DNA of 64,000 bases. Origin: Escherichia phage vB_EcoM_ESCO8. Under the pieces are notes generated by a model. The model was not told the DNA's origin. It saw only the letters and a program-made list of their open reading frames with translations, and searched no databases. The DNA lies in the sequence record OM386653.1, one strand, 5' to 3'. Both the position numbers and the translations under genes were made by a program. Below are positions 9,086-62,840 of this stretch, in pieces (position 1 is the stretch's first letter; every line of letters begins with the position of its first letter).

Positions 9086-9167
9086 TGGCCGGGGTGACAG
9101 GATTCGAACCTGCATACTCCAATTACTCGGTTAACGCCTGATTAGAAGTCAGGTGAGATACACCCCG
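9086..9167 (-). tRNA. Atypical tRNA-like gene (UCU-type anticodon hairpin, no canonical D arm)
   Basis: Perfect 7-bp acceptor and canonical T-arm TTCGAAT; internal hairpin CCTGA-CTTCTAA-TCAGG. Confidence 0.35.
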
Positions 9168-9178
9168 TTTTCATAACG

Positions 9179-9208
9179 ACTATAACAAAAAAACTAAGTA
9201 AATGTCAA
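9179..9208 (-). promoter_or_regulatory. Sigma70-like promoter candidate for tRNA array (TTGACA-N18-TATAGT)
   Basis: Read on reverse complement; -10 ends ~12 nt upstream of the first tRNA-like gene. Confidence 0.35.
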
Positions 9209-9224
9209 GACATTTTTTAGGTGT

Positions 9225-9310
9225 TGGTGCAAGTGGAGGGATTCGAACCCTCAATCATTTAAGCGTTGCGTTTTAAGCACAATGTGTATCACCAATTCCA
9301 CCACACTTGC
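9225..9310 (-). tRNA. tRNA-Leu(UAA), type II
   Basis: Perfect acceptor, T-loop TTCGAAT, anticodon loop CTTAAAA. Confidence 0.6.
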
Positions 9311-9341
9311 ATATAGGAGATGCATAGCACCTCCTTTTAAA

Positions 9342-9417
9342 TGGTGGTTCCCCAGGGTTACAATCCCTGCCCTCGACACTTATGAGGTGTGCGCTCTCGT
9401 CAGTGAGCTATGGAACC
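9342..9417 (-). tRNA. tRNA with CAU anticodon, non-canonical T-loop
   Basis: D-arm GCTC/GAGC, anticodon loop CTCATAA, T-loop ATTGTAA. Confidence 0.45.
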
Positions 9418-10163: not shown

Positions 10164-11897
10164 TTAGTCAACCTGGATGGTTCCCATAGTACGAAGAACC
10201 TCTACATCAACACGGTTACGGATATCAGTAAATGTTTCATCACGTCCTTCTACTTGTGGTGTAATAACCGTACCATCTCTGAAGATAACTTGTAACTCAT
10301 TGTCTTCATCTTGGATATCTTTAAAAGAAAGATTATCCACAAGAGAAAGTTTACCATTTGTATCCTTAACAACCTTAATAAAACCTTTTGCAGAGCGTTT
10401 ACCAGGGTCAGTTTTAGGCTCTTTACTTACCAAAATTTCGTGTTCACCGATGATACTACCTGTTGCTTTAACAGCAAAACCAAAAGTATCTCGTGTATTG
10501 AACTGATAAGTATAACTACCAACACCAAATACAATATTGGAAGCTGCAAAACCTTTCTTCTTCAGTCGGCGTAAGATCTCGTGTTCTCGTTCAACAGTAA
10601 TAGAATCACCATAAATCATACCGATGTGCTGATCAAGAACCTTGTAGCCTTTTCGGTTGATAGTACCACCAAACACTTCCCAAAGGATTTGAATAGAACC
10701 TACTGCTTCACAATAAGGAATCTCATAAGTTTCATCAATACAATCAGCAACACTGCAATCCTGAAGAACATTGTAATACTTATTAACATCAGCCAAATGA
10801 ACTACTTCAGTGGCTGTAGCAATACCATTATTTAAAAGGTCTTCATAGTTAGCAAAAGATTCAACATTGTATCCTGCAACAACTTTAACCGGATCTCCTG
10901 AATCTGGACGAATAACAAGACGACCATTTCGTGACATAATGGATTCTTTCAATTCTACCAGAATGCGAGTCAAGACAGCCCAGTAATCATAAGAATCTGC
11001 TACATATGAACAAAAACCTTCTGGAACAATTTCTTCAATATAGCGGCGAAGAAACTCTTTCTCTGCTACATAACGAAGCCCATCAACATCATCTTTAAGA
11101 TGTGGGAAATGTTTCTTCAGATCTTCAACAATAGCTCCAATGTTAGTCGTTGCTACTGAATGTTCTGTTGCAGGAATAGAACCTGCAACAAACTGGTCAT
11201 AATCAATACCATAATAATCATGCACAGTTTCAATAGCCAGAATATTATCTGTTCCTGTGAAAGATGCCAAATGAGCGATACCACTCTTATAACCATCTTC
11301 GATATTACTTAAACCACGTAGGCTAAAATCATGACACTGGAAGTTAACGTGATCAATATTATCACACGTTGCCATCGCATATGCCATAGCAATACGCTTA
11401 TACTGAAAAGCTGCTGTAGCATTAGTCATTGTCTTCCAAGTTTCATCTGACAATAGTGTTTCCACATAGTTAGTTAACCAAAAGAATTTTTCTAAAGTAT
11501 TATGCACAGTAAACACAGGAACACCAATAGGACACAAAACACCTTCTGGCAGAGATCGAACTTCCAGCGGAAGATAACCTAAATCGTGCAATTCTCCCCA
11601 ACATTCAGCAGAAGGAGCAGAAGCACCTAATGCATTTTTAGACATACGATAAAATTTATTTACTGCTGCACTACGAGACATTTTAAAGAAGCTATCCCAC
11701 ATAGTTACAAGAGCATCAGTAACTGCTCGACGAATACCTAAAACAATTACACCACGTGCTTCACGATCTGCATAGTGTGCAAAGTTTTTATCATTACGAG
11801 GAGTTAAATTAGAGAAAATGAGTTTTGTATTTTGGTTGTACATCTGCTTGTGACCAGGCTTATACCAATCAGTAGCAAAAGGTGCAAAAATATTCAT
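10164..11897 (-). CDS. Nicotinamide phosphoribosyltransferase family protein (NAMPT/NadV-like; possibly Namat-type)
   Basis: 577 aa, NAMPT-like N-terminus and length; AAGGAGA RBS. Confidence 0.75.
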   Translation of the reverse strand: MNIFAPFATDWYKPGHKQMYNQNTKLIFSNLTPRNDKNFAHYADREARGVIVLGIRRAVTDALVTMWDSFFKMSRSAAVNKFYRMSKNALGASAPSAECWGELHDLGYLPLEVRSLPEGVLCPIGVPVFTVHNTLEKFFWLTNYVETLLSDETWKTMTNATAAFQYKRIAMAYAMATCDNIDHVNFQCHDFSLRGLSNIEDGYKSGIAHLASFTGTDNILAIETVHDYYGIDYDQFVAGSIPATEHSVATTNIGAIVEDLKKHFPHLKDDVDGLRYVAEKEFLRRYIEEIVPEGFCSYVADSYDYWAVLTRILVELKESIMSRNGRLVIRPDSGDPVKVVAGYNVESFANYEDLLNNGIATATEVVHLADVNKYYNVLQDCSVADCIDETYEIPYCEAVGSIQILWEVFGGTINRKGYKVLDQHIGMIYGDSITVEREHEILRRLKKKGFAASNIVFGVGSYTYQFNTRDTFGFAVKATGSIIGEHEILVSKEPKTDPGKRSAKGFIKVVKDTNGKLSLVDNLSFKDIQDEDNELQVIFRDGTVITPQVEGRDETFTDIRNRVDVEVLRTMGTIQVD

Positions 11898-11968: not shown

Positions 11969-12862
11969 TTAAAAATTCCACACGTATGGAGATACAATTT
12001 GTTGTTGCAAATCTGACTGATTCTTAACAAGAACACAGGAATCTTCTTGGATGTTATCTTCCCACACATTAAGAGAATGAATGCAGTCAAAGTGCTCACT
12101 TAACTCTTTAAGACCTTTAGAAAAGATACCGTGTGTAACATATAACTCAATCTTACCTGCGTTACGAGCACGTAGCACTTTAGCCAATTCAATAAAAGTT
12201 CTACCTCCGTCACAGATATCATCTACGATCATCAGGTTACGCTTATTGAAATCCTGTACAGAAATGTCTGTACGAACAATAGCACCTGTTGCAGTATCTC
12301 TAACCTTCTCTGCACAGAACACATCTAAAGACATTTTCTTAGATAATTTAAATATTTTCTTAAGAGCACCACCATCAGGACTAACAAGAGCAAAATTCTC
12401 CATACGTAACTTCCACTTTAAAGTTTCGTAAGCAATCTCTTCTTGAGGTATTACACAGAGTCTGTCAAACACTGCTGGAGTAACATCGCTATGTGGATCA
12501 GCAACGATAACACGTGAGAAATTTAATGAATTAATTATAGAAGCAAATGCTTTAACTCCGAATGCTTCCCCAGGTTCACACACTCTGTCTTGTCGTGCAT
12601 ATGGCACATACAGCATGAGTAAATCAACACAATATGGTTTATGATATAGCATATTGTCCAATGCATTCTTAGTCATAACCAAAGTCATCAAGTCTTTAGC
12701 AGATCTTACTTCTAAAGAGAGTAAGATTCTGTCTGTAGCATGATTGAAACCTGATAGATTCGTATCTAGTTGAACATGTTGTTCTCCACCAGAGAATGTA
12801 AAGACTTTAACGTCTACATCAGTAACATAACAGTCAACACCATGTAGAATACTAACTTTCAT
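11969..12862 (-). CDS. Ribose-phosphate pyrophosphokinase family protein (Prs-like; possibly Adps-type)
   Basis: 297 aa; VADPHS and DDICDGGRT motifs typical of PRPP synthetase; AAGGAGA RBS. Confidence 0.75.
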   Translation of the reverse strand: MKVSILHGVDCYVTDVDVKVFTFSGGEQHVQLDTNLSGFNHATDRILLSLEVRSAKDLMTLVMTKNALDNMLYHKPYCVDLLMLYVPYARQDRVCEPGEAFGVKAFASIINSLNFSRVIVADPHSDVTPAVFDRLCVIPQEEIAYETLKWKLRMENFALVSPDGGALKKIFKLSKKMSLDVFCAEKVRDTATGAIVRTDISVQDFNKRNLMIVDDICDGGRTFIELAKVLRARNAGKIELYVTHGIFSKGLKELSEHFDCIHSLNVWEDNIQEDSCVLVKNQSDLQQQIVSPYVWNF

Positions 12863-13271
12863 TGTTTATCTCCTTAGTTGAGTTAGGACTTTATGTTCTC
12901 TACTCTACATACAGATAGATCTAAAGTCAATAGATATTTATTATTTAATTAATAATAAAATTAATAAAGAATCTATTGTTAGTATAGAGTATGTATGTTA
13001 GTATTATAGACATAACATAGTGCTATATGTAGACTACTCAGTTGTCTGTTAGATCATGTATCACAAGATTAGATAACACCCCCTCGCTGCGCTCGGCGTT
13101 TTTCGGGGGTTAGGGTAGCATACTTTTTTGCGTTTGTCAACACCTTTTTGGATTATTTTTAAGTACAACCTAAACCTCCTAAAAACGATTGTAACGAGTT
13201 TTACTGTGAGGTAAGGTGATTGCATATCTTAAAGGCCATTAGCTCGTTACAGAGCCGTACAGGAGGGAATA

Positions 13272-13640
13272 ATGAGGGTCACACGTTACGTTAGAAGTGA
13301 AACAATAGATGGAGGCATAATGTATGCTTTCTACGATGATAAAACTTTTTGTTCTGCATTCTATGAAGAAGACTTGTCTACGGAATGGCAACAAATCATC
13401 TTCTTACTTGACATTTTGAAAAGAAGAGATAACTTTGAAGGTATTGAGTGGACAGTGGGAAGCAAAGTTATCATTCCAGGCTTAAGCAAACATGAGTTGC
13501 TTGACTTAGATTGCAAACTTTGTAATTATCAATTCTCAAAACGTTTACCATTAGAAAGACAGTTAGGAGTTGAGATTCATGTTGACTTGGGCGATGGAGT
13601 ATCCTATACTCTCAACAATCATAGTGCTGACGTTAATTAG
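13272..13640 (+). CDS. Hypothetical protein
   Basis: ORF track; AGGAGGG RBS. Confidence 0.5.
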   Translation: MRVTRYVRSETIDGGIMYAFYDDKTFCSAFYEEDLSTEWQQIIFLLDILKRRDNFEGIEWTVGSKVIIPGLSKHELLDLDCKLCNYQFSKRLPLERQLGVEIHVDLGDGVSYTLNNHSADVN

Positions 13641-39705: not shown

Positions 39706-39727
39706 CCCCCCTTTAAGGGGGTTATTA
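39706..39727 (+). terminator. Stem-loop terminator (CCCCCC-TTTAA-GGGGG + TTATT)
   Basis: GC stem, short T-rich tail. Confidence 0.5.
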
Positions 39728-52775: not shown

Positions 52776-53044
52776 TTGTCAGTATCCTTTTCAATAAAGC
52801 CTGTGGTTTTACAAGGTACACATTCATACATTTGTCCAACATCTGCAACCACCCAACCCATTCCATTGCAATAAGGACAGATTGTTTTGTTCTCTTTAGC
52901 ATACACAGCCAGAAGTCTTTCTTCTAGCTTGTTGTAATCAGCAAGAAGAACATAGTCTCCTTCTGGATCTGGTACAATATCACATTGACCAGCAGCACCT
53001 TGGCTGTACACCTCTAAACCATATCGTGTAACCATTATCCCCAC
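52772..53044 (-). CDS. Small Cys-containing protein (CDIVxDPxG family)
   Basis: ORF track; paralog of 57550..57774. Confidence 0.45.
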   Translation of the reverse strand: MGIMVTRYGLEVYSQGAAGQCDIVPDPEGDYVLLADYNKLEERLLAVYAKENKTICPYCNGMGWVVADVGQMYECVPCKTTGFIEKDTDK

Positions 53045-53253
53045 TCCGCAATCAGTTTTGGATTTTCTGCACGAGAATAGAATGTTGTAATGTCACCGTA
53101 AGTGTACTCTTGTTCCGACAGTTTTACAAGAGAGATCATTTCACGATCTGGAGTACCAGGAATCCAGTCAAATACAGCAACGCCACGTGGTGTTACATAG
53201 AAACCAGATGTATTACCCGTAAACTTATCTTTTCCTTTATATAATTTGTACAC
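53035..53253 (-). CDS. Hypothetical protein
   Basis: ORF track. Confidence 0.45.
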   Translation of the reverse strand: MYKLYKGKDKFTGNTSGFYVTPRGVAVFDWIPGTPDREMISLVKLSEQEYTYGDITTFYSRAENPKLIAEWG

Positions 53254-53460
53254 TTTCTACTCCTCATAGATAGAATCTATTAAAAACCTGCTATCAATCG
53301 GTATAAACAGTTTTACTTTTCGTAAAAAACATGCTACCCTAATCTTATATACCGAGCGATAGCGAGGTAGAGAATATTCCATGTTATACATGGAAAGAGT
53401 ATATGTAATGTTACTAACTCTATAACTAACTATATACTCTTTATACCTTACTTACTACTC

Positions 53461-53724
53461 TTATTGAAGTTCAAAGATATCCCCATCTCCATCATATCCA
53501 TACTCTAACTCTCCTGTATCATATAATACAATAAAGTCTGTATCATCTTCAATAAAAGATTTAGCATAGTCTACTAACTCTTCATTATCTTCATACCCTT
53601 CCAGGTACTCAATACGACCATTGATACATTTAGCTGCAACAACTCCTGGGCCATTGCTTGGAGTCCACTCACTGTATACTCGCATACCTAATTCTTTAAT
53701 CATTGTTTGTCTCCTCATAATCAA
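53461..53724 (-). CDS. Hypothetical protein
   Basis: ORF track. Confidence 0.45.
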   Translation of the reverse strand: MIMRRQTMIKELGMRVYSEWTPSNGPGVVAAKCINGRIEYLEGYEDNEELVDYAKSFIEDDTDFIVLYDTGELEYGYDGDGDIFELQ

Positions 53725-61218: not shown

Positions 61219-62840
61219 CTGTTACAAGAACAGCAACATAGGAACATCATTAATGAAGGATTTAGTATAGGATTTCCCTATCAATTATTCTATATATACC
61301 TATTATTTTTAACACACCCCTTTGTACATAATATAGACAAATAAATATCTATGCCACAAAAATTTTCCGGTATACCCGATTTATTTCGACACACCCCCTT
61401 TTCATAAACGTAAAGTCAATAATATCAATAACTTGCCGCAAAATACTGCTCGCTTGCGAGAGGTGCTTAACGCGATTTTCAGCGCCCCCCGATTTCTGCC
61501 GACCGTCCCCCTCAAATATCAATGAGAATTATTATCATTTGCATTATCATTCAATGACTTATAAGACTTTTGATTATTTTCTGAGCAAGAAAGGCACTAC
61601 TCACAACAAAACAGATAAATTCTAAGTAAATCAATGGCTTGGCATTTCTAAACATCTATATACACCTTGCCAAATGAAATGATCTGGCGTGAAATAGTGC
61701 CACCCGTGGAAGATAGCTGATAATGATTCTCATTTGCATACTTTCTGTACTATAAAACCGACTAAAAATCAAGATAATTCTATTTTATTGCGCTTTTAAG
61801 AAAGTAGGCTCAACAAATGGTAAGTTATATTGCAACAAATAGGGATAGTTATGCCCGACAAATAACAACAATAGTATGAAAAATCATCTATTCGGATGTA
61901 AATAATTTTGCGCAATAGCACTGTGTTCCCATAGCGCCCCCTGGAGGGTGGCGCATTATGATCATCAATGTCATTATTCACCATGTTTATTATTGCATAG
62001 CTTATATTATAGCCAATGTTCTAAACATTAGCTAATAATAACGCACCGCAACAATGTAAGGGAATACAATATACCATGTATATTGTTGCGCTTGCAATTG
62101 TTGCAAGCTACATAAGCACAGATAATAACTATCGGTGATGGTTATTATGTGGGGTGTGTAGTTGCGTTATTATTAGCCGCCTATGTGTCCGGCATAGGCT
62201 GCTAATGATACGCTTGCGAATTATATTTCTTGTTATAGTTATTGTATGGAATGATTACTGTATGAAATGATTATTTAGGTAATAGATAGGAAGGTAAAGA
62301 TTAGATCATAAATAGATAGGATATTAATTATTTAGTAATGTTACTAACAATTTAATAGTTACTTTGTGCAACAATTCGATAGATTATAGTTATAGTTTTA
62401 AAGGTTAGATAGATTATATTTAGCTTAGTAATGATTTATATTGGTTATTGTTGTTTAATATAAGGTTATCAATGAGATAGTAACAGTAAGTTATAAATAA
62501 AGGTGAGATAATTAGTTTTAATTTAGTTAGATAACTTATTATTTTATAGGTTAGATGGTCATAAGTTAAGAATGATTATCATTATTGCATTATGCAGTTT
62601 ATTGCATAAATAATCAGCTATAAATAAGAATGATTATCATTTAAGAGGAAAGACAAGAAAAAGGCTGTTTTTTCCCGATAGTTACATTGAGAAATTAAAA
62701 ATAAGCGGTCTAAAACACGCTGTAAGCGCCTTATGATCTTCATGGTATGGTTGTTCATCTGCTCCTTGATTAGCTCGATACCGCGATCTATTCACTTTTT
62801 TCGGTGAACGTTTTTGATAGGTAAAAGCTATCATATTTAT

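Follow-up and report, generated by a model that had tools for sequence, protein, structure and literature searches.

The spacer of 409 nt that separates two divergent gene blocks in Escherichia phage vB_EcoM_ESCO8 (sequence record OM386653.1) was analysed within a window of 64,000 nucleotides, whose numbering and strands are used here. The spacer is best explained as a divergent promoter region in which a G+C-rich island carries a conserved host-type promoter coupled to a mini-hairpin with G·A pairs, a cassette found three times per genome, and in which the C5/G5 clamp hairpin that had first singled out the region is incidental. We place the probability of this explanation at roughly 55%. It is carried by the conservation of the cassette, its copy number, its geometry, the rule obeyed by the hairpin loop and the occurrence of analogous promoters elsewhere. 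The conserved unit covers ~60 bp (13083-13140); in minus-strand sense its parts are, in order, TTGACA, a 17-bp spacer ending in TGC, TACCCT, AA, the predicted transcription start and the box CGAGC-G(N)1-2A-GCGAG (Table 1).

In the mechanism that we propose, host RNA polymerase with its housekeeping sigma factor would bind the cassette through the consensus -35 element TTGACA, the 17-bp spacer with the extended -10 TG and the weak -10 element TACCCT, and leftward transcription would begin at ~13104. Transcribed nucleotides 10-22 would then carry the invariant purine-strand hairpin, which may form at the 5' end of the nascent RNA or in the displaced non-template DNA strand. The hairpin would be the part that gives the cassette its function, acting on three promoters of the genome as a signal at the level of structure. 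The transcript of the copy in the spacer (copy A) would continue into Prs, NAMPT and the tRNA array, and on the minus strand no terminator was detected on the way from the cassette to Prs.

A conserved cassette in three copies

The source of the sequence is a phi92-like Escherichia phage (Justusliebigvirus, Stephanstirmvirinae), and 55 phage records matched a 1.3-kb query around the spacer at 95-99% identity. Among 7 distinct Justusliebigvirus sequences there were no variable columns between 13083 and 13149, whereas the flanks do contain such columns and the adjoining C-run is of variable length. The same synteny was found in Citrobacter phage Tr1, in three Klebsiella phages (Prs 62-64% identical) and in one IMG/VR contig. 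The spacer of these relatives has diverged to 47% mean column identity, yet the cassette block is nearly invariant, reading CCTCGCT[G/T]CGCTCGGC, ~12 nt, TTAGGGTAGCA[T/C] and, downstream, GTCAA[C/T].

A whole-genome scan of a 148,885-bp relative detected exactly three cassettes and the box nowhere else; the three copies of phi92 lie at ~7.9, 47.9 and 129.8 kb. The window itself includes a second copy, of the B type. Cassettes were also found in Phapecoctavirus, for example phAPEC8, and in the contigs L028, with 27-37% protein identity, and L265, whose proteins show no detectable relationship. When the IMG/VR and metagenome scans were pooled with the other loci, 38 distinct cassette sequences were obtained, and these are the variants referred to below. 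None of the 57 GenBank records matching the spacer annotates the cassette as such, and motif-string searches of the literature with conserved 9- and 10-mers returned only unrelated primer sequences and no description of it. The cassette appears to be undescribed so far.

The upstream part of the cassette has the elements of an extended -10 promoter, with a -35 element near TTGACA, a separation of 17±1 bp, a TAnnnT -10 element and TG at -15/-14. Across the variants the -35 and -10 elements are 17-18 bp apart, except in the pair L331/L359, which is without a -35 element, and the 14-nt stretch between them drifts freely. The sixth base of the -35 element is mostly A, and the B-type copies mostly read TTTACT. 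In most variants, as judged by eye, a pyrimidine and then a purine occupy the sixth and seventh positions after TACCCT; the window copy has C at the seventh (13105), with the purines G (13104) and A (13103) coming next.

The same core was found well beyond these phages. In 70 of 113 IMG/VR matches to TGCTACCCTAA, which represent ~35 unrelated families, TTGAC stands at a distance of exactly 15 nt, compared with 11 of 55 for a TAGGGT control, and TGCTACCCTAA at the correct spacing is ~6 times commoner than this control. In bacterial genomes the identical 31-nt pattern, mostly with TTGACA, precedes two FMN riboswitches, two T-box leaders and one tRNA at a distance of 9-18 nt. Since the core occurs in front of such bacterial genes, it is most likely a real promoter of the housekeeping-sigma type, neither exotic nor phage-specific, and its activity in the phage is predicted by analogy. 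The recurrence of the core in ~35 phage families and many bacterial phyla suggests that TACCCT with the extended -10 TG is a widely used -10 variant. The idea that TGCTACCCTAA defines a phage-specific promoter class was weakened, as ordinary bacterial genes in many phyla use the same core.

Two further observations concern the core outside the cassette. The pattern TTGAC-N15-TGCTACCCTAA (IMG/VR loci L036-L148; genome loci L206-L325) is often directly followed by hairpins or by short repeats specific to a family, for example in L043, L060, L123 and L136. In L053 (1251-1281) and ~30 similar IMG/VR contigs of ~43 kb, taken as T7/SP6-like podoviruses, the same core comes with an A+T-rich tract upstream. 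The core is flanked there by the DNA polymerase gene (together with a 73-aa gene) on one side and a metallophosphoesterase gene on the other, and every gene in the part that was examined runs in the opposite direction to it. Orientation calls based on open reading frames were noisy for the unrelated phage families and were used qualitatively only.

The cassette resembles extended -10 promoters of the sigma70/sigmaA type, known from bacteria and phage early genes, in TTGACA, the 17-bp spacer, TG at -15/-14, TAnnnT and a purine start. It differs from them in that its 11-mer ATGCTACCCTAA is kept unchanged by three paralogues and in several genera, that it is tied to a fixed hairpin box in the initially transcribed region, and that one class of copies faces against its neighbours.

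The box lies at about +10 to +22 from the predicted start. Its loop was GAA in 19 of the 38 variants, GATA in 12, GCA in five and GAAA in two, and no other loop was seen, although the search pattern left 3-4 loop bases free. The loop changes between cassettes that are otherwise similar (L331 and L359, L349 and L350, and the C-type copies of phi92 and phAPEC8). All 38 variants obey the mini-hairpin rule GCGNAGC/GCGNNAGC, that is GC-G(N)1-2A-GC with G and A closing the loop. This is the rule for extraordinarily stable DNA mini-hairpins, which have been documented at the complementary-strand origins of phages G4, St-1 and alpha3, at ssiA of RSF1010 and at the hairpin promoters of the N4 virion RNA polymerase (PMC13037366). 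The cassette box follows the same sequence rule as these known hairpins, with only the N positions varying. The known hairpins function on single-stranded DNA or together with a dedicated primase or polymerase, whereas the cassette motif stands in duplex DNA downstream of a sigma70-type promoter.

Additional evidence for structure was obtained from the sequence just downstream of the promoter core, which is more structured than shuffled sequence, with a mean z of -1.36 over 41 families (p = 7e-8) and a z of -0.13 for the upstream control. An inverted repeat that has the start at its centre shows apparent compensatory changes; none of its stems, which are 2-6 bp long, is significant taken singly (p 0.02-0.9).

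Scanning the three copies, together with eight related loci, against Rfam yielded nothing except a sub-threshold match of copy A, on the same strand, to GA-cis (RF02987), with 21.3 bits against a gathering score of 34.7 and E values of 0.31 over 3.5 kb and 0.022 over 251 nt. The terminal hairpin of GA-cis, GCcGAgcGaAagcGAgGGGG, is nearly identical to CGCCGAGCGCAGCGAGGGGG of the window, sharing the C-C/G-G pairs, the tandem GA, GC/GC and the G..A loop. The 5' half of GA-cis aligns to the window only through AGGAGG upstream of the predicted start, and GA-cis was not among the matches (E up to 10) for the regions of copies B and C or for the eight loci from relatives. Membership of GA-cis was rejected at this score, and the likeness is a lead only. 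A search for GA-cis-like hairpins elsewhere in IMG/VR (GCCGAGCGNNAGCGAGGGG) returned four matches, G+C-rich and in no promoter-like context, which by eye were attributed to chance.

A comparison can also be drawn with the promoter-early stem-loop (PeSL) cassettes of T4-type phages, reportedly described by Arbiol et al. in 2010. PeSLs are short repeated modules of a host-type early promoter and a stem-loop, which lie among small early genes and are shared by diverged genomes. In layout the present cassettes are similar, being short repeated modules of a host-type promoter and a stem-loop that are scattered among small early genes and occur in diverged genomes, which suggests modular mobility. 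Compared with PeSLs, there are only three copies here, the hairpin lies downstream of the start and not upstream of the promoter, and the G·A-containing sequence is invariant.

Copy orientation and alternative roles

The copies differ in their relation to the genes around them. Copy A is divergent and its promoter faces Prs, while the C-type copies are co-directional with the following genes (phi92 gp209 to gp208; phAPEC8 gp029 to gp030). The B copy of the window is antisense to both flanking minus-strand genes (53461..53724 and 53035..53253). As one class is antisense whichever strand is functional, the cassette appears to act autonomously or at the level of DNA, and not just as a promoter for mRNA. 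A further layout was seen in a Klebsiella-phage-like contig (L024 4723-4830, promoter sense), where the C-type cassette is followed by a strong 14-bp hairpin and TTTTCTTTT just before the ribosome-binding site of the next gene. This order of promoter, box, terminator and gene is attenuator-like; at the same place the phi92-type C copy has a hairpin without a U-tract.

Several points weigh against a host-type promoter with a functional hairpin. TACCCT agrees with the -10 consensus at 3 of 6 positions and fails a promoter scan, and the invariance of ATGCTACCCTAA across paralogues and genera goes beyond the demands of an ordinary promoter. The box has the same stem throughout and so provides no compensatory covariation, which leaves the loop rule to carry the case for structure by itself; GCGNAGC is not enriched genome-wide (23 observed, ~22 expected). 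Literature searches returned no promoter or transcriptome work on Justusliebigvirus or Phapecoctavirus, and both the promoter activity and the start used here are predicted ones. Finally, the B-type copies of three lineages run opposite to both of their neighbouring genes, and most of these copies have their own conserved -35 element, TTTACT. This antisense arrangement is the main unexplained observation, and a simple role as an mRNA promoter does not account for it.

The three cassettes could instead be transcription-activated replication origins, a rather unlikely alternative on balance. RNA from the host-type promoter would stay hybridized through its purine-rich 5' part as an R-loop, and the displaced non-template strand would fold into a mini-hairpin resistant to single-stranded DNA-binding protein (SSB), a single-strand initiation signal that loads primase or helicase; the A+T-rich tract adjacent to copy A would be the unwinding element. 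Placement independent of gene orientation (A divergent, C co-directional, B in conserved antisense) and the dispersal of three copies over the genome agree with such a role, as does the documented presence of mini-hairpins of this kind at the G4, St-1 and alpha3 origins and at RSF1010 ssiA (PMC13037366). The loop set GAA, GCA, GATA and GAAA also suits the DNA rule (GNA or GNNA, with any N) better than the RNA rule GNRA, because GATA is the second commonest loop. The A+T-rich tract, ~140 nt downstream of copy A, is conserved, but no comparable tract was seen beside copies B and C in the sequences read by eye. Reading of the spacer revealed neither iterons nor DnaA boxes, for which no dedicated scan was run, and in bacteria the same core serves ordinary genes as a promoter. 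The minimum of cumulative GC skew at ~13 kb, like the other turns at 49 and 62 kb, falls where gene orientation switches, and the authors of the rV5 study came to the same conclusion on GC skew for their phage (PMC3606486).

Origins linked to promoters have parallels in other systems. T4 has oriF and oriG, T7 has a primary origin with phiOL and phiOR, and ColE1 has RNA II with a primosome assembly site. In these, as would be the case here, the transcript matters over its coding content, placement is independent of gene orientation, there are several copies, and a structured or A+T-rich region lies just downstream. The promoter type differs from T4, where it is MotA-dependent, and from T7, where it is served by the phage RNA polymerase. 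It is a speculative proposal, and one that we would make only tentatively, that the cassettes are R-loop origins of Stephanstirmvirinae primed by host RNA polymerase and equipped with an SSB-resistant hairpin, or else a new promoter-proximal RNA or DNA signal that reprograms RNA polymerase at three promoters.

The box could alternatively act as duplex DNA, being an operator at +10 to +22 for a phage-encoded regulator that switches the three promoters in the early-to-middle transition, with an incidental potential to form a hairpin. We consider this improbable. Repressor operators typically lie just downstream of the transcription start, as the box does, but its halves, GAGCG and GCGAG, form a mirror or direct repeat and not a dyad. 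The spacing of the halves varies by 1 nt (GNA versus GNNA), which would shift the phase of a protein site. A shared protein site would be expected to keep box and promoter core invariant in three paralogues and across genera, as is observed; the confinement of variation to the N positions of the loop is, however, what a hairpin predicts. The early genes of phi92 include several annotated 'potential transcription regulators', and no candidate binding protein was identified.

The C5/G5 clamp and other features of the spacer

The host-type promoter with its G·A hairpin occupies the part of the spacer in which the original prediction had recognized a different structure, a GC clamp hairpin followed by TTTTT. 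The two runs were found as described, CCCCC at 13079-13083 and GGGGG at 13105-13109, 21 nt apart. The T-run does not follow the clamp. It sits within the C5/G5 loop (13099-13103), where it comes after the inner 5-bp stem only, and the sequence next to G5 is TTAGGGTAGC. The prediction was right that the hairpin could not serve as a terminator for either flanking gene, because both genes diverge from the spacer.

A role for this hairpin as a functional RNA element on the rightward transcript (terminator, attenuator or switch), or as a structured element of an origin, is very improbable and has already been largely refuted by comparative data. Matches to the pattern C5-N(3-30)-G5 are scarce in the window (3, at 2 loci, where 0.07 would be expected), and the inner stem with T5 scores as terminator-like on the plus strand; the scan gave 1 terminator-like site, where chance would give 0.7. 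The complete spacer folds better than shuffled sequence (z -3.2 and -3.5 for the plus and minus strand, respectively), whereas the fold of the clamp is not exceptional on either strand (z -0.7 to -1.7). The C-run is C5, C6, C7 or C4AC among the 7 distinct Justusliebigvirus sequences. In Tr1 and the Klebsiella relatives the C5/G5 arms are unpaired and the T-run is gone, the clamp is missing from the sister genera, and both clamp and T-run are missing from Phapecoctavirus and from the other two cassette copies. For a regulatory switch, as had been suggested, the 20-nt inverted repeat 13097-13116/13168-13187 would offer the G-run another partner; no switch between alternative pairings was found, the inner and outer stems are nested and not mutually exclusive, and the relatives are without the T-run.

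An intrinsic terminator was rejected on the position of T5 in the loop, on the sequences after the clamp (TTAGGG after G5, and UGUUAUCU on the minus strand), on the lack of a co-directional gene upstream and on the absence of clamp and T-run from Tr1, the Klebsiella relatives and Phapecoctavirus. As read from these comparisons, the clamp is a lineage-specific accident on the conserved cassette, neither a terminator nor a conserved feature. It would have arisen where a polymorphic run in the promoter discriminator happened to complement the G-run after the box. With the predicted start at ~13103-13105 on the minus strand, the sequence complementary to G5 would fall at -4 to +1, so that the clamp would straddle the start and be absent from that transcript. 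The differences in the length of the C-run (13079-13083) between near-identical genomes may reflect real hypervariability or homopolymer sequencing error. The sole other C5/G5 hairpin of the window, at 39706-39721 on the plus strand, reads CCCCCCTTTAAGGGGG, followed by TTATTAGGAGG and ATG, and resembles an ordinary intergenic terminator just before a ribosome-binding site.

Table 1. Features of the spacer, of its flanking genes and of the second cassette copy in the window
Feature	Position	Strand	Basis or remark
Ribose-phosphate pyrophosphokinase (Prs) gene, first of the leftward block	11969..12862	-	Open reading frame; 99.7% identity to annotated Prs of phi92-like phages
Predicted proximal sigma70-like promoter for Prs: TTGACT (12930-12925), 17 bp, TAGAGT (12907-12902)	12902..12930	-	Consensus scan, 9/12 matches
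A+T-rich palindromic tract TTATTTAATTAATAATAAAATTAATAAA with variable tandem duplications	12935..12968		Overlapping palindromes I3, I6, I12-I16
Imperfect 17-bp palindrome AGACTACTCAGTTGTCT	13031..13047		Counterpart AGACAACTCAGTAGTCT in Citrobacter phage Tr1, mismatch at the same position
Small open reading frame, 54 aa from ATG or 35 aa from TTG 13168 behind AGGAGG	13061..13225	-	Probably no gene
Clamp hairpin: C5 13079-13083, inner stem CGCTG/CGGCG (13085-13098), T5 13099-13103 in loop, G5 13105-13109	13079..13109		
Box CGAGC-GCA-GCGAG: closing C-G, tandem G·A/A·G (5'-GA/3'-AG), two G-C pairs, G(N)A loop	13083..13095	-	Stem halves invariant in all orthologues and paralogues
Predicted leftward transcription start	13103..13105	-	Canonical -10 to +1 distance
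Sigma70-type extended -10 core: TTGACA (13140-13135), 17-bp spacer ending TGC (13120-13118), TACCCT (13117-13112), AA (13111-13110)	13110..13140	-	
Candidate proximal rightward promoter: TTGTAA (13189-13194), 17 bp, TAAGGT (13212-13217)	13189..13217	+	Read from sequence; weak, below scan threshold
First rightward-block gene, 122 aa, hypothetical	13272..13640	+	Open reading frame; homologue of phi92 gp106A
Second cassette copy (B type): TTTACT (53312-53317), 17 bp, TGC-TACCCT-AA (53332-53342), CGAGC-GATA-GCGAG (53353-53366)	53312..53366	+	

The limits of the spacer were confirmed, as it extends over exactly 12863-13271 from the Prs start on the minus strand to the first plus-strand ATG, and the leftward gene, which had been called Prs-like, does match Prs (Table 1). 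In phi92 the equivalent region is 47.77-48.18 kb, between gp107 (Prs) and gp106A, where only ribosome-binding sites are annotated. The description of the spacer as AT-rich applies to the whole (34.0% G+C, compared with 36.9% for the window) and above all to 12863-13078 (25.5%). It does not apply to the surroundings of the hairpin, which lies inside an island of 55.6% G+C at 13079-13141, the conserved part of the spacer. The view of the spacer as a divergent control region with an embedded structured element is upheld in both respects, except that the element is not the C5/G5 hairpin with TTTTT.

The spacer appears from its sequence to be a compound divergent promoter region, in which each flanking operon would have a proximal sigma70-like promoter of its own. 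The alignment shows that the -35 element proximal to Prs is kept in relatives, as TTGACC in the Klebsiella phages and Tr1 and as TTGATC in L009. The first rightward gene of the relatives has clearer promoters upstream, TTGACA-17-TATCAT in the Klebsiella phages, TTGACT-17-TACCAT in Tr1 and TTGACT-17-TATCTT in L009; their positional equivalence to the candidate in the window is our reading of a part that aligns poorly.

The core of the A+T-rich tract, AATTAAT, is unchanged in all relatives aligned, and the record of phage inny labels the tract 'repeat_region'. Insertions in the tract differ among Justusliebigvirus genomes (12 nt, ATTTATTATTTA, after 12935; 11 nt, AATTAATAAAT, after 12958), and these alternative insertions of 11-12 nt indicate that it behaves as a variable-number repeat. 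The 17-bp palindrome was not conserved in the alignment with the Klebsiella relatives. Two further inverted repeats, the 20-nt one noted above (80% complementary) and a perfect one of 9 nt (13190-13198 with 13243-13251), bracket the -35 element of the cassette and the candidate rightward promoter; neither was spotted by eye in Tr1 or the Klebsiella relatives.

No tRNA or tmRNA was found in the spacer. An array of 16 tRNAs lies downstream of Prs and NAMPT (6630-9417, minus strand), and leftward transcription from the spacer would reach it. The GenBank record of phi92 has a 151-nt 'hypothetical tRNA' within the NAMPT gene (window 10164-11897, minus strand; L001 1756-1906). ARAGORN detected no tRNA in the matching part of the window, and this feature is therefore probably an annotation artefact.

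Two other identities for the spacer were considered and rejected. The small minus-strand open reading frame spans the cassette promoter itself, and small genes are annotated in this region in VEcB, Eryne, cardinal and KMB37, VEcB having a different small open reading frame; most records have none. The C-run polymorphism (+1, +2 or +1 nt) lies inside the reading frame and shifts it, and no counterpart was found in Tr1 or the Klebsiella relatives. A terminus or pac site was rejected on location, the 343-bp terminal repeat of phi92 corresponding to ~61.5-61.8 kb of the window and the spacer to 47.8-48.2 kb of phi92. As the terminal repeat lies elsewhere, the ALITA record, which ends within the spacer, was taken to have been linearized arbitrarily. 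The left end of phi92, including the 343-bp direct terminal repeat, corresponds to 61248-61810, and the window thus crosses the physical terminus of the genome. The adjoining stretch at 62-63 kb has only 30% G+C and a reversal of skew.

Significance of the cassette

The original prediction, as it was written, describes something largely commonplace, a divergent promoter region that contains a hairpin by accident. The conserved cassette is of wider interest, as it offers a handle on where host polymerase may start early transcription, and on where replication may begin, in phi92, phAPEC8 and their relatives, a group of widely used therapeutic and model coliphages. It would also place a mini-hairpin of the GCGNAGC type in large double-stranded DNA phages, under strong purifying selection.

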